This document shows, one piece after another, positions 16,612 to 45,787 of a stretch of DNA of 64,000 nt (position 1 is the first letter of the stretch; the number at the start of each line of letters is the position of its first letter). A program made the position numbers and the translations under genes. Below the pieces are notes generated by a model. That model did not search any database, was not told the DNA's origin, and saw nothing but the letters and a program-made list of their open reading frames with translations. The stretch is taken from contig OZ024745.1 in the NCBI GenBank assembly GCA_964016885.1, positions 52,452,001 to 52,516,000 of the forward strand, read 5' to 3'. Origin of the DNA: Eledone cirrhosa (Eukaryota).

Positions 16612-17459
16612 ATAGAAAGATTTGAATGGATACAGTTTAGTTGAAAGGAATTTATTGACACGTGTTTCTATAACAGTTACATAACCTAAAACAGCTATCT
16701 ACAAACTTTTAGTTATGCAGACATTCAATATTTCAATGTTATTATTTACTGTCATTTCATCAGAATAATATTACTGAGGACCTATTTAGTTTTTATAGAG
16801 AATATTAGGAGGGAGGGGTGAAGTTGTTAGAAGAATAGTTGAAGGAGTGGTTTTTCGATAGCAGTGAGAATTCTTGGTGGCAGTGAGTAATTAGATTCCC
16901 ATCTGTTGTTTTGACATTTTTTATAGAATATATTATTGGTTATTTTTCTAAATCTATAGAAGGATTAGAGACCACGCATATCTTTACTATCTCTAATCCT
17001 TCTATAGATTTACAAAAATAACCAATAATATATTCTATAAAAAATGTCAAAACAACAGATGGGAATCTAATTACTCACTGCCACCAAGAATTCTCACTGC
17101 TATCGAAAAACCACTCCTTCAACTATTCTTCTAACAACTTCACCCCTCCCTCCTAATATTCTCTATAAAAACTAAATAGGTCCTCAGTAATATTATTCTG
17201 ATGAAATGACAGTAAATAATAACATTGAAATATTGAATGTCTGCATAACTAAAAGTTTGTAGATAGCTGTTTTAGGTTATGTAACTGTTATAGAAACACG
17301 TGTCAATAAATTCCTTTCAACTAAACTGTATCCATTCAAATCTTTCTATTTTTCTCCGGATTACTTTTGGAACTACAACTGGAACCGTCGAGCAAACTCT
17401 ACGTGAGCTGATAATCTACTGTGTGTAATATTTATATTACAACACAACGGAAAATACTG
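16612..17459. mobile_element. Near-perfect fold-back PLE pLTR (family B), about 358-bp arms plus about 110-bp 3' extension
   Basis: 16612-16969 reverse-complements 16990-17349; (AT)n flanks; HHR in both arms; second copy at 45418-45787. Confidence 0.85.
17193..17309 (+). ncRNA. Type I hammerhead with expanded stem II (inverted copy 16652-16768)
   Basis: TTATT-CTGATGA-aATGACAG...CTGTTATa-GAAAC-ACGT-GTC-AATAA. Confidence 0.75.
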
Positions 17460-17521
17460 TATATATATATATATATATATATATATATATATATATATAT
17501 ATAATACTATATATATATATA

Positions 17522-17628
17522 TAATTGTTTCTACTATTGGCACAAGGCCAGAAATTACCCAGTACATTACTGGTACTTTATTTTATCGACCCCGTAAGGA
17601 TGAAAGGCAAAGTCAACCTCGGCGGGAT
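17522..17628 (-). mobile_element. Nin-core SINE, 5'-truncated
   Basis: Matches 16271-16378. Confidence 0.8.
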
Positions 17629-18999
17629 ATATATATATATATAATACTATATATATATATGTATATTGTTAAGAATCAAACATTTTCATGTGTTTCTCAA
17701 AACCCGAACTATAAATACGCTAACATTGGTTGCAAGAGAATAATAATATCTTGATTTCTATTATCTACAACGCCATTCCTGACATTAGCGTAATTTGAAT
17801 CCCCAGGCACTAATCTCACCTCCTGTGGAAGCAGGCGCGATTTGATCTCAGAAAGCACAGATCTGCGACAGGCAACATATGATAACCTGGCTGACGCAGG
17901 AAAAAATATACCCCCCCCCCCATCCTCCTAATCTTTGGACTGTTACCTTATCAACATCAAAAAGATGAAAGTCAACACGGGGAAATTATAACGAAGCATT
18001 TTTTATGTCAATTTATCTAAACTTCCAATTCGCCACCACATCTGTAATCGTTGCCATAACACGTGTGAAAGACTCCTTTCCACCTTAATGTTCCATTGTG
18101 TAGCACGATACCCAACACACCCGCAGTGGAATGACTGAAATACTAAAATAATAAACAATTCATATATGAAGTGGGTAAGTTCTAACATGAGGAATATTCG
18201 ACAGGAGGTTCTAGTAAGTCCGACAACTTACACGAAGCTGAATATTATGATTCATTTATCAAGTTATAATTCAATTTTATATATTTGCAGAGATTCAATA
18301 GCGTTGCCATAAGAACCATATGCCTATTCTGTATTCAACTTTTTTCTCGTCAATATTTTCAATAAATCAAAATTATATTTTGTCTCAAGTTATACATAAT
18401 CTCAAATAATCAGTTTAAACCTAATGTTTTATCTTTTGGAAACATTTAGATATTGCGTATCAAAGTTTGGTATTTTCAACATTTTGAATATATAAAAAAA
18501 AATGCAGTAGATCAGGCTTGGATGTAAAGTTTTGGACTGGTTGAAGTATTCTGATAAACAATATCAATACGAAAAAAAAAAATGTTCCATGTCCGTCGAT
18601 AAATCTACCGTGTATCCCAGCACGATATATAATCACTTAGAGAATCAATCATTCAATCTGGTTAAGCAACTAACTGAATATCCGTCATCATATCACTCAC
18701 TGCATCTATATTTTTCTCAGTGTTTCCATCTCACTTACATTCTGTTTACTTATATATACATTGTCTTCATATCAATATTTCAAAACGTACTAAATATATG
18801 TAAATCTGTGTTTGTTTGCAGAGTTACACACATGTGTAAGCTGCGAGTGTCTTATTAGAGAAATATTTCGCGCAACACGTACACAACTACATGTAATTAT
18901 GCATGTGTTCGTATATCAGTATGTGTACCTCTGCGTATGAATACATAATAATTTCCTATATATATATATATAAATACATATAAATATACAATATATTCA

Positions 19000-19075
19000 C
19001 CTGTTGAGTGCTTTATAGCAGTTATAAACATGTTTAAGCTTGTTGAATCCCAACAAATTAAATATAACCTCTGCA
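19000..19075 (+). mobile_element. Family A 3'-terminal fragment between (AT)n tracts
   Basis: GAGTGCTTTATA.CAGTTATAAA...CAACAAATTAAATATAACCTCT matches 32868-32920. Confidence 0.65.
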
Positions 19076-44152: not shown

Positions 44153-44331
44153 TAACTGTTTCTACATTTGGCACAAGGCCAGCAATTAGCCAGTGCGTTA
44201 CTGGTACTTTATTTTATCGACCCCGTAAGGATGAAAGGCAAAGTTAACCTCGGCAGGATTTGAACACAGATTGCAAGGGGACGTAACTATGCTGGAAAGC
44301 ATGTCCGACCCTCTACCGATACTGCCAATTC
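44153..44331 (-). mobile_element. Nin-core tRNA SINE
   Basis: Matches other copies. Confidence 0.85.
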
Positions 44332-44782
44332 AATAATAATAACTATATTTAGATATGAAAATCTAGATGTACATATCCCTATTTCGCGGGTTACTTTTAT
44401 TTTTCCTGTGTGTTTAGCAACACGTGGTTGTGTGGGTTGCTGCTAACTCTAGCAGAGCCCAAGAAAACACGTCTTTACTATACCTTGGCTCATCGGTCAT
44501 TGTAACACACAATAGAGTTCAGATGCATCACTGATTTTGCGTTTTCTATTCTATCATACTCTGCTCTGAGTGCTCAACCGGCATACTGCCTATGAAGCAT
44601 CTTAGCTACCATCAGACACATATATATATATACGTAGATATATAAGGTTAAAATTTGTTTAAAGATATAGTACCAAGAAAAACAAACGACTAGGCATGAA
44701 GTAGAGAATAGAGGAGTATATAAATGTGCATAAAAAGCTTTCTCCGATATTATATATATATATATATATATATATATATATG

Positions 44783-45391
44783 TTAGAAATTAGAAATTAT
44801 AAGCTTTCACCGTATTTTAGACTAAAGAAATTTCTAGCCTGATAGTGGGGTTTATAATCCTCGGAGAAATGGAAAAAGATGAATGTTACCGTACATGGGA
44901 GTCGAACCCACATATTTGGTTATCCAGACCACTGTGCTACCATTACACCAATATTTCTCCAAGGGTTATAAACCCCACTATCAGACTACAAATTTCTTTA
45001 GTCCAAAATACGGTGAAAGCTTATAATTTCTAATTTCTAATTTCAAACTCGCGCACCGTTTCAAAAACATACTTACATGTTTACGTTTATAATTTGCTTG
45101 TTTATCATTCACTTGCTAAGTACATAGCTTCTAATTCGAATGGAAGGAGACGGGATGTGTATTGGTGTAATGGTAGCACAGTGGTCAGGATAACCAAGGA
45201 TGTGGGTTCGACTCCCATGTACGGCAACACTCATCTTTTTCTATTTCTCCGAGTGTTATAAACCCCAGTATCAGGCTAGAAATTTCTTTAGTCTAAAATA
45301 CTGTGAAAGCTCATAATTTCTGATTTCTAATTTCAAACTCGCGCACTGTTTCAAAAACATACTTACATGGTTACGTTTATAATTTGCTTGT
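44783..45391. mobile_element. Inverted plus tandem about 290-bp unit carrying a tRNA-like sequence
   Basis: Minus arm 44783-44953; plus direct repeats 44953-45101 and 45243-45391; (AT)n flanks. Confidence 0.75.
45156..45226 (+). other. tRNA-like cloverleaf (inverted copy 44887-44953), probably not a functional tRNA
   Basis: A-box TGGTGTAATGG, D stem GTG/CAC, TGGT/ACCA anticodon stem with 7-nt loop, T arm GTGGG-TTCGACT-CCCAT, TTTTT at 45236-45240; acceptor stem poor. Confidence 0.75.
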
Positions 45392-45417
45392 ATATATATA
45401 TATGTGTATATATATAT

Positions 45418-45787
45418 ATAGAAGGATTTTAATGGATACAGTTTAGTTAAAAGGAATTTATTGACACGTGTTTCTATAACAGTTACATAACCTGAAAACA
45501 GCTGCTATCTACAAAGTATTAGTTATGCAGACATTCAATATTTCAATGTTATTATCAACTGTCATTTCATCGGAATAATTTTACTGAGGACCTGTTTGTT
45601 TTTATAGAGAATATTAGGAGGGAGGGGTGAAGTTGTTAGAAGAATAGTTGAGGGAGTGGTTTTTTGATAGCAGTGAGAATTTTTGGTGGCAGTGAGTAAT
45701 TAGATTGCCATCTGTTGTTTTGAGCAATATAATATTTATATTACAACAATATAATATTTATATTACAACACTACAGAAAATACTGCA
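45418..45787. mobile_element. Family B pLTR: minus arm joined to a short plus 3' terminus
   Basis: 45418-45723 matches 16612-16913 (core here CCGATGA); 45728-45787 matches 17427-17459 with a 22-bp duplication. Confidence 0.8.

Follow-up and report, generated by a model that had tools for sequence, protein, structure and literature searches.

The short and long ends of Penelope-like element (PLE) insertions described here come from a 64,000-nt stretch of the Eledone cirrhosa genome (GenBank assembly GCA_964016885.1, contig OZ024745.1, positions 52,452,001 to 52,516,000 of the forward strand), hereafter the window, and from related copies elsewhere in the assembly. Four repeat families, A to D, which on protein motifs rather than a tree are Hydra-clade PLEs inserted in (TA)n, each terminate at two fixed positions, a short end (S) and a long end (L), and this bimodality is a real, genome-wide feature. 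Inverted insertions of these families and of a fifth, family H, almost always combine one S arm with one L arm, in either polarity, and a bulged hairpin lies just behind every S and L site of A to D. We propose, at a probability of roughly 0.6, that twin hairpins on one RNA would load two reverse transcriptases (RTs), with each cut target strand priming its own cDNA at S or L.

The window has a GC content of 34% and 87 microsatellite tracts within a surrounding assembly of 3.0 Gb, and contains about 15 fold-back inserts, most of which lie between (TA)n runs. The copies and arms of families A to D are as follows.

3290-3510: family C copy 1, L arm (minus strand, 3290-3447) and S arm (plus strand, 3441-3510), with the S hairpin at 3328-3373 on the minus strand
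6827-7265: family A copy, L arm left (minus strand), S arm right (plus strand)
16612-16974, minus strand: family B copy 1, S arm, 360 nt
16974-17459, plus strand: family B copy 1, L arm, with the tail at 17347-17459 (113 nt)
17353-17393, plus strand: bulged hairpin behind the B S site, with a CUC/GAG stem, a UC bulge, a 3-bp upper stem, and a mismatched outer pair
18985-19075, plus strand: family A L arm of about 75 nt, with a possible 9-nt S arm before it (by eye)
30585-31062: family A copy, L arm left (minus strand), S arm right (plus strand)
32667-32925, plus strand: family A L arm, no S partner seen
33855-34030: family D mini-insertion, S arm left (minus strand), L arm right (plus strand), with the tail at 33951-34030 and the S hairpin at 33959-33982
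34081-35598: family C copy 2, L arm (minus strand, about 896 nt) and S arm (plus strand, about 607 nt)
45418-45723, minus strand: family B copy 2, S arm
45730-45785, plus strand: family B copy 2, tiny L arm made of tail sequence only, with a short internal duplication, which cannot have templated the S arm
62853-63000, minus strand: family D S arm

Copies were located through exact-pattern anchors just upstream of S, which matched genome-wide 3260 times for family B, 21392 for C, 44719 for A, 23598 for D, and 23708 for H; reversed control anchors for the same five families gave 0 matches. The sample comprises the first 30 loci per anchor search plus 100 extra stretches taken by position. It is non-random, its loci being the earliest matches on contig C1, picked by position and spacing irrespective of end type. 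Among 268 anchors in families A to D, 134 ended at S, 115 ended at L, 6 read through into the open reading frame (ORF) of a tandem unit, and 13 were classed as other, placing the terminus at S or L in 249 of the 262 terminal copies, with an S-to-L spacing of 80-113 nt. Inspection by eye assigned 10 of the 13 other ends to S or L with small indels and 3 to neither, and one automatic S call (L143) was not clean. In family H, 29 of the first 30 anchors ended at S or L and 1 read through. Counted genome-wide, 1419 copies of family B stop at S and 1224 continue, the tail's next base being seen in 97 of the first 100 that continue. The tail, measured from S to L, is 90 nt in A, 113 in B, 89 in C, 80 in D, and 59 in H, and about 170 nt in family I (by eye). 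Only 16 of 6720 flank pairs share at least 50 nt, which supports independent insertions rather than segmental duplicates. The S and L sites of A to D open with 2-5 nt of alternating TA; the C tail contains TA runs of 7 and 8 nt at which no sampled copy ends, and TA matching alone therefore does not choose the ends. Among contigs assembled from three sequencing runs, loose ends running into TA occurred at L (290) and at S (62) in one run, possibly of the sample behind this assembly, and one contig from another organism ended at L; these data were weak and were not counted.

Two reused ends per family had been named in the initial annotation of this DNA, and all are present in the window, two of them with corrections: for B, S at 16612 and 45418 and L at 17459 and 45785; for C, short ends at 3510 and 35598; for A, short ends at about 7262 and 31062; and for D, a short end shared by the copies at 33855 and 62853. 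The D long end lies at 34030. The C long end had been placed at TTGAAGAC (3305, 34111), which is incorrect, the true end lying 15-30 nt farther out, at about 3290 and 34081. The long boundary of family A is indeed reused, but it runs 5-8 nt beyond AAATATAAC, the sequence originally given as its end.

The strongest regularity concerns how the ends combine. Over the five families A to D and H, 106 of 109 resolved inverted insertions carry S on one arm and L on the other, as against the half expected if the arms chose independently. In A to D, automatic calling gave S+L for 77 of 87 inverted pairs; inspection removed 5 pairs (L191 as unresolved, L064 and L143 as broken, L185 and L188 as comprising two insertions each), which left 80 S+L and 2 S+S. 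Family H contributed S+L in 26 of 27 inverted pairs. Moreover, many seemingly solo anchors are accompanied by a small partner arm that bears the opposite end; among those resolved by eye, none showed the same end.

Either arm can be the one that reaches farther into the element. At 31 junctions of family B, this was L in 19 and S in 9, with 2 ties and 1 unresolved; in 22 insertions of family C, it was S in 8 and L in 6, with 4 ties and 4 others; and in family D the arms tie in 27 of 35. In addition, L arms of 20-71 nt accompany a longer S arm and consist of tail alone (L002, L006, the window copy at 45730, L066, L078, L168, and L245), and because such arms share no sequence with their S partners, neither arm can copy the other. 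Arms overlap by at least 3 nt at 13 of the 31 B junctions, an upper bound given that BLAST overlaps tolerate mismatches, compared with 6% in an exact null. In most small D and many small C insertions (33855-34030, 3290-3510; L172-L188), the two arms break off 41-73 nt upstream of S, within the hammerhead-like core, which may be an RNA 5' end or a stall site. Three near-full-length C arms (L145, L148, and L150) stop at most 20 nt from the upstream L site, which was not seen in B; a bound protein may have blocked them, or synthesis may have ended once a circle had been traversed.

The hairpin starts 6-10 nt past the site and is laid out as CTC (CUC in RNA), an upper stem, a loop, 2 unpaired bases, and GAG. 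It is present at 8 of 8 S and L sites of A to D, compared with about 2% of background positions under the same loose descriptor, and the hairpin of the D long site was predicted from the seven known sites and then found in read-through copies. At 17 tabulated sites, of which 5 were chosen by a descriptor requiring one upper pair and 12 were blind to that pair, and from which 4 of 16 in-genome sites without CTC/GAG are omitted, assuming a 2-nt bulge gives a Watson-Crick first upper pair in 17 of 17, compared with 0-1 for a bulge of 0, 1, or 3. The second upper pair forms in 14 of the 17 and the outer pair in 13, and the upper stem shows the compensatory swaps C-G/U-A and G-C/A-U. Folding of whole leaders recovers the hairpins in D, at S in A, and at L in B, rather than at all sites. 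Of six other window families, E, I, and J fit the descriptor and the family at 52383 does so weakly. The duplicated bulged hairpin just 3' of each site likely sets the S and L positions in A to D.

Similar structures occur outside this genome. Among five Hydra-like metagenome contigs, two (L274 and L276) carry a pair of hairpins, spaced 64-66 nt from each other, ahead of the ATG; a third terminates in TA about 45 nt past one hairpin; no hairpin pair was found ahead of the ORF start in L275 and L277, both of which lack a clear leader. Six published Hydra consensi, read by eye, show the hairpin in 3, a variant in 1, and none in 2: Hydra-1_Ajap opens with two hairpins before the ATG, Hydra-2_Ajap and Hydra-2_Amil close with one, and Hydra-1_Crog has the variant. 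We tentatively extend the proposal, at somewhat short of an even chance, to a programmed twin priming of the Hydra clade, with a dimeric telomerase-related RT on two hairpins of one RNA and the cDNAs as mutual templates. On this view the hairpin would act as a short, portable signal for starting synthesis, with conservation reaching from corals to molluscs and echinoderms, and non-coding ribozyme repeats, family E among them, would have borrowed it.

Tandem copies show where S and L lie on the template. The distance from L to the ATG is 49 nt in A, 54 in B, 44 in C, 93 in D, and 44 in H; the template thus continues past L to the ATG, and S and L are internal points of the leader. This departs from priming as in long interspersed nuclear elements (LINEs), with a single fixed 3' end and a poly(A) or repeat tail: here there are two ends, the template runs beyond both, and no poly(A) was found at S or L ends. 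In the scheme that we favor, the endonuclease (EN) would cut (TA)n or AT-rich DNA on both strands, with a stagger. The two hairpins of one RNA would be occupied by a pair of RT units, probably as a dimer, one unit taking S and the other L, and each target 3'-OH would pair with the short UAU before its hairpin and then be extended. Both cDNAs would stop independently, their 3' ends would join via short microhomology or a few untemplated bases, and the joined cDNAs would template each other's second strand, the tail being whatever separates one start from the other. The suggestion in the initial annotation, that both target strands are primed at two template positions, is supported by the bimodality, the S+L coupling, the free polarity, and the tiny L arms alike.

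Shared sequence changes bear on the number of RNAs involved. The arms of one insertion share subfamily variants. In one H insertion (L251, G000:C1:2082000-2090500), both arms carry an identical set of 36 A>G changes and no T>C near the pseudo-long terminal repeat (pLTR), and a 31-nt piece of this pattern occurs just twice in the genome. The cluster is an ADAR-type signature fixed in DNA, and its presence in both arms implies that both trace to one edited RNA. The terminal pLTR of L251 is unedited and of another variant. Its S arm started at the downstream pLTR and its L arm at the upstream one. This was the one hyper-edited element in a scan of 617 alignments.

Several observations, in addition to the partly descriptor-based choice of the tabulated hairpins, weigh against twin hairpins on one RNA. 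Three insertions are homotypic (C L150, S+S; A L163, S+S; H L270, L+L). Both H sites are without the CUC/GAG hairpin, yet the ends of H are just as bimodal and just as coupled, and the CTC/GAG descriptor also finds no match in window families G and K; the hairpin is therefore not what causes tails in general. In 4 of 34 family A S-hairpins the first upper pair is broken, and the outer pair is missing in both B hairpins. For L251, which is one element only, fold-back or gene conversion is also possible, because its other arm contains the whole L arm. Of 46 private changes shared by arms in B, C, and D, 3 are A>G and 12 are T>C, so that A>G is not in excess, and the four A>G changes of L261 are confined to one arm. 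Finally, ORF-bearing L arms require an RNA with an L hairpin behind the ORF, a multimer or circle that is putative here; a circular or multimeric template has been proposed in PMC4209133.

Four other explanations were weighed. A single priming event might be followed by fold-back or template switching of the cDNA, after which the endonuclease would trim at a fixed site, leaving the one-sided tail, with the hairpin as a cut signal in single-stranded DNA. Its components have precedents in the proposals of "EN-mediated resolution" (PMC8557442) and self-priming (PMC3846280), and it agrees with the near-identity of the arms, with the edited element L251, with covariation that cannot separate RNA from single-stranded DNA, and with the farther reach of L in 19 of 28 decided B cases. 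However, S reaches farther in 9 B and 8 C insertions and the tail-only L arms have no sequence in common with their S partners, so that copying of one arm from the other would need an added deletion, and PMC11167929 places the tail ends at RT start sites in vitro. Since either arm can be longer and some L arms lie wholly in the tail, simple fold-back is disfavored, and we regard this explanation as unlikely. Twin priming at S and L on two RNA molecules, in an asymmetric complex imposing one S and one L, would likewise account for the bimodality and the free polarity, and the one-arm changes in H (18 A>G and 9 T>C) and in L261 could be edits on separate molecules; but an extra rule would be required for 106 of 109, and L251 bears one private edit pattern in both arms, which makes two RNAs distinctly unlikely in our judgment.

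The remaining two explanations do without internal starts. If S and L were two RNA 3' ends made by processing or termination, each primed at its end as in LINEs, two sharp ends would be expected, as observed; the ends nevertheless lack poly(A), a conserved hairpin lies 3' of each site (for L, missing from terminal copies), hammerhead-like cores lie upstream of S, and nothing in such a scheme enforces one of each, so that we find it highly improbable. That both sites open with short TA-type sequence could instead point to ends formed after insertion, when (TA)n recombined with TA-rich spots or slipped against them, or the copies could be segmental duplicates. Such an origin is hardly credible, as the longer TA runs in the tails are unused, the flanks are unrelated, and the window H copy, which lies outside (TA)n, terminates at the same points. 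This H copy is bounded by a 13-bp direct repeat (48965-48977 and 51559-51571), a target duplication as left by a staggered double-strand cut.

Dual-site priming, on which the proposal of twin hairpins on one RNA builds, is itself not new and generalizes the result published for the Poseidon element PAc of Anolis (Frangieh et al. 2024, PMC11167929). PAc in vitro cuts and extends both target strands, with reverse transcription beginning at two internal positions that delimit the tail; it required RNA 3' of the starts, a dimer was predicted, and uncleaved RNA was the template. No strand difference was seen for PAc in vitro, whereas the insertions here take one of each. PAc starts lie 111-118 nt inside the ORF with one AC-rich stem-loop and without target homology, whereas those of A to D lie before the ATG with a hairpin each and a short TA match (PMC11167929). 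Two internal RT start sites bounding a 30-40-nt tail are thus already published (PMC11167929, PMC8557442), and a one-sided PLE tail of that length is known (PMC8557442, PMC3846280). Tails measure 59-170 nt here versus 30-40 nt in print. For the Hydra clade, whose PLEs carry a C-terminal endonuclease (Craig et al. 2021, PMC8557442), the published tails are 30-40 nt, in comparison with 80-113 nt in A to D, and the tail is ascribed to EN resolution. The ends available here number from thousands to tens of thousands in each family. Penelope elements of Adineta vaga likewise have head-to-head pLTRs, an optional 31-bp tail, and target duplications of 8-10 bp, explained by self-priming on an antisense template (PMC3846280). 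The tiny L arms do not fit that explanation. In L1 twin priming, a single RNA is the template for primers from both target strands and the resulting cDNAs are joined head to head, the second primer using variable internal sites in a minority of insertions; here, in contrast, both starts are fixed and the arms overlap.

The one-S-one-L rule, the twin bulged hairpin, and tails of 59-170 nt appear to be new as far as the literature was searched, a basis that leaves aside Arkhipova 2006, Pyatkov 2004, and the supplement of PMC11167929, which may bear on tail lengths and RNA structure. None of the three was found in the literature searched or in the consulted text of PMC8557442, from whose main text the words "hairpin," "stem-loop," and "bulge" are absent. 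The origin of inverted pLTRs, the one-sided tail, and the second strand is an open question for PLEs (PMC8557442, PMC11167929). The near-fixed S+L rule together with a candidate RNA signal of about 20-40 nt makes the origin of the tail and of the inverted pLTRs directly testable. An assay already working for another PLE offers a format in which this signal can be mutated, relocated, or duplicated. Should it be true, the proposal would name an RNA element that positions a telomerase-related RT, and would provide a rule for locating true PLE ends and a means of setting the start point of target-primed reverse transcription.

The assignment of A to D draws on the following features. The ORF of a tandem B copy, counted from its first Met, encodes 782 aa and contains YRDD together with a C-terminal YKC...YVG motif, and the A, C, and D proteins align with it at 42-64%. 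A single ORF with an RT plus a GIY-YIG endonuclease at the C terminus, identified on motifs, is accompanied by pLTRs that are tandem or inverted with a one-sided tail, as in endonuclease-bearing (EN+) PLEs. Of the RWK/RWR and DKG-to-DKT features, B has RWK and DKT, C and D have RWR and DKT, and in A, RWR is visible only in leader read-through. The CxCx5C linker is present in A, B, C, and D, and CCHH is absent; CxxC and CxH around E and N are complete in A and C, the B copy is without the CxH part, and the D fragment ends ahead of these C-terminal motifs. Pfam matched 1 of 6 proteins, none of the four Hydra proteins of A to D among them, and missed the H fragment too. In the A to D sample, 240 of 249 S or L ends reach (TA)n within 10 nt. 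The hammerhead-like halves CUGANGA and GAAA lie upstream of S in A and B, the first half being changed in C and D. The ends do not lie at a constant distance from the hammerhead-like core, the core-to-S distance ranging over 67-150 nt in A, B, and C. Rfam gave no hammerhead match at E≤1 in the window, where its matches were microsatellite-driven miRNAs apart from the tRNA in family G. Family H has a CX4CxxC linker and CCHH in the C-terminal endonuclease (ORF 50252-51058, by eye) and on these motifs, rather than a tree, is Neptune-like, with Nematis also possible. TA runs beside H ends (L225-L231, L237) contain periodic variants, often many-fold repeated, and the TA target may be expanded during or after H insertion.

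The further two-ended families in the window include the following.

10101-11377: family E, 537-bp non-coding tandem unit, with a bulged hairpin behind the S site
32951-33372: family J fold-back, S left, L right, with a bulged hairpin behind S
48978-51558: family H, endonuclease with Neptune-like motifs, S arm on the left and L arm on the right, with the tail at 51500-51558 (59 nt), CUC/GAG hairpin absent
61513-61990: family I fold-back, L left (tail of about 170 nt), S right, with a bulged hairpin behind S

Family E appears to be a retrozyme-like passenger. Family G (44787-45388) combines a short fold-back with a tandem unit and has two ends without the CUC/GAG hairpin; it carries a tRNA-like piece (Rfam tRNA at 44895-44950 and 45159-45223) and is possibly a short interspersed nuclear element (SINE) mobilized by a PLE. 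A further PLE with RVT_1 and GIY-YIG and inverted arms of 610 bp lies at 7331-10054, and decayed ORFs of a non-LTR retrotransposon, with RT and restriction-enzyme-like (REL-type) motifs recognized by eye, occupy 39424-42066 on the minus strand. A SINE-like repeat occurs in six copies, often near TA runs (16261-16454, 17512-17621, 38836-39027, 44145-44332, 52870-52976, and 54949-55070). Finally, a 393-bp inverted repeat of 99% identity (46382-46774 and 51839-52231) encloses the H element and a long AT/AC microsatellite field.

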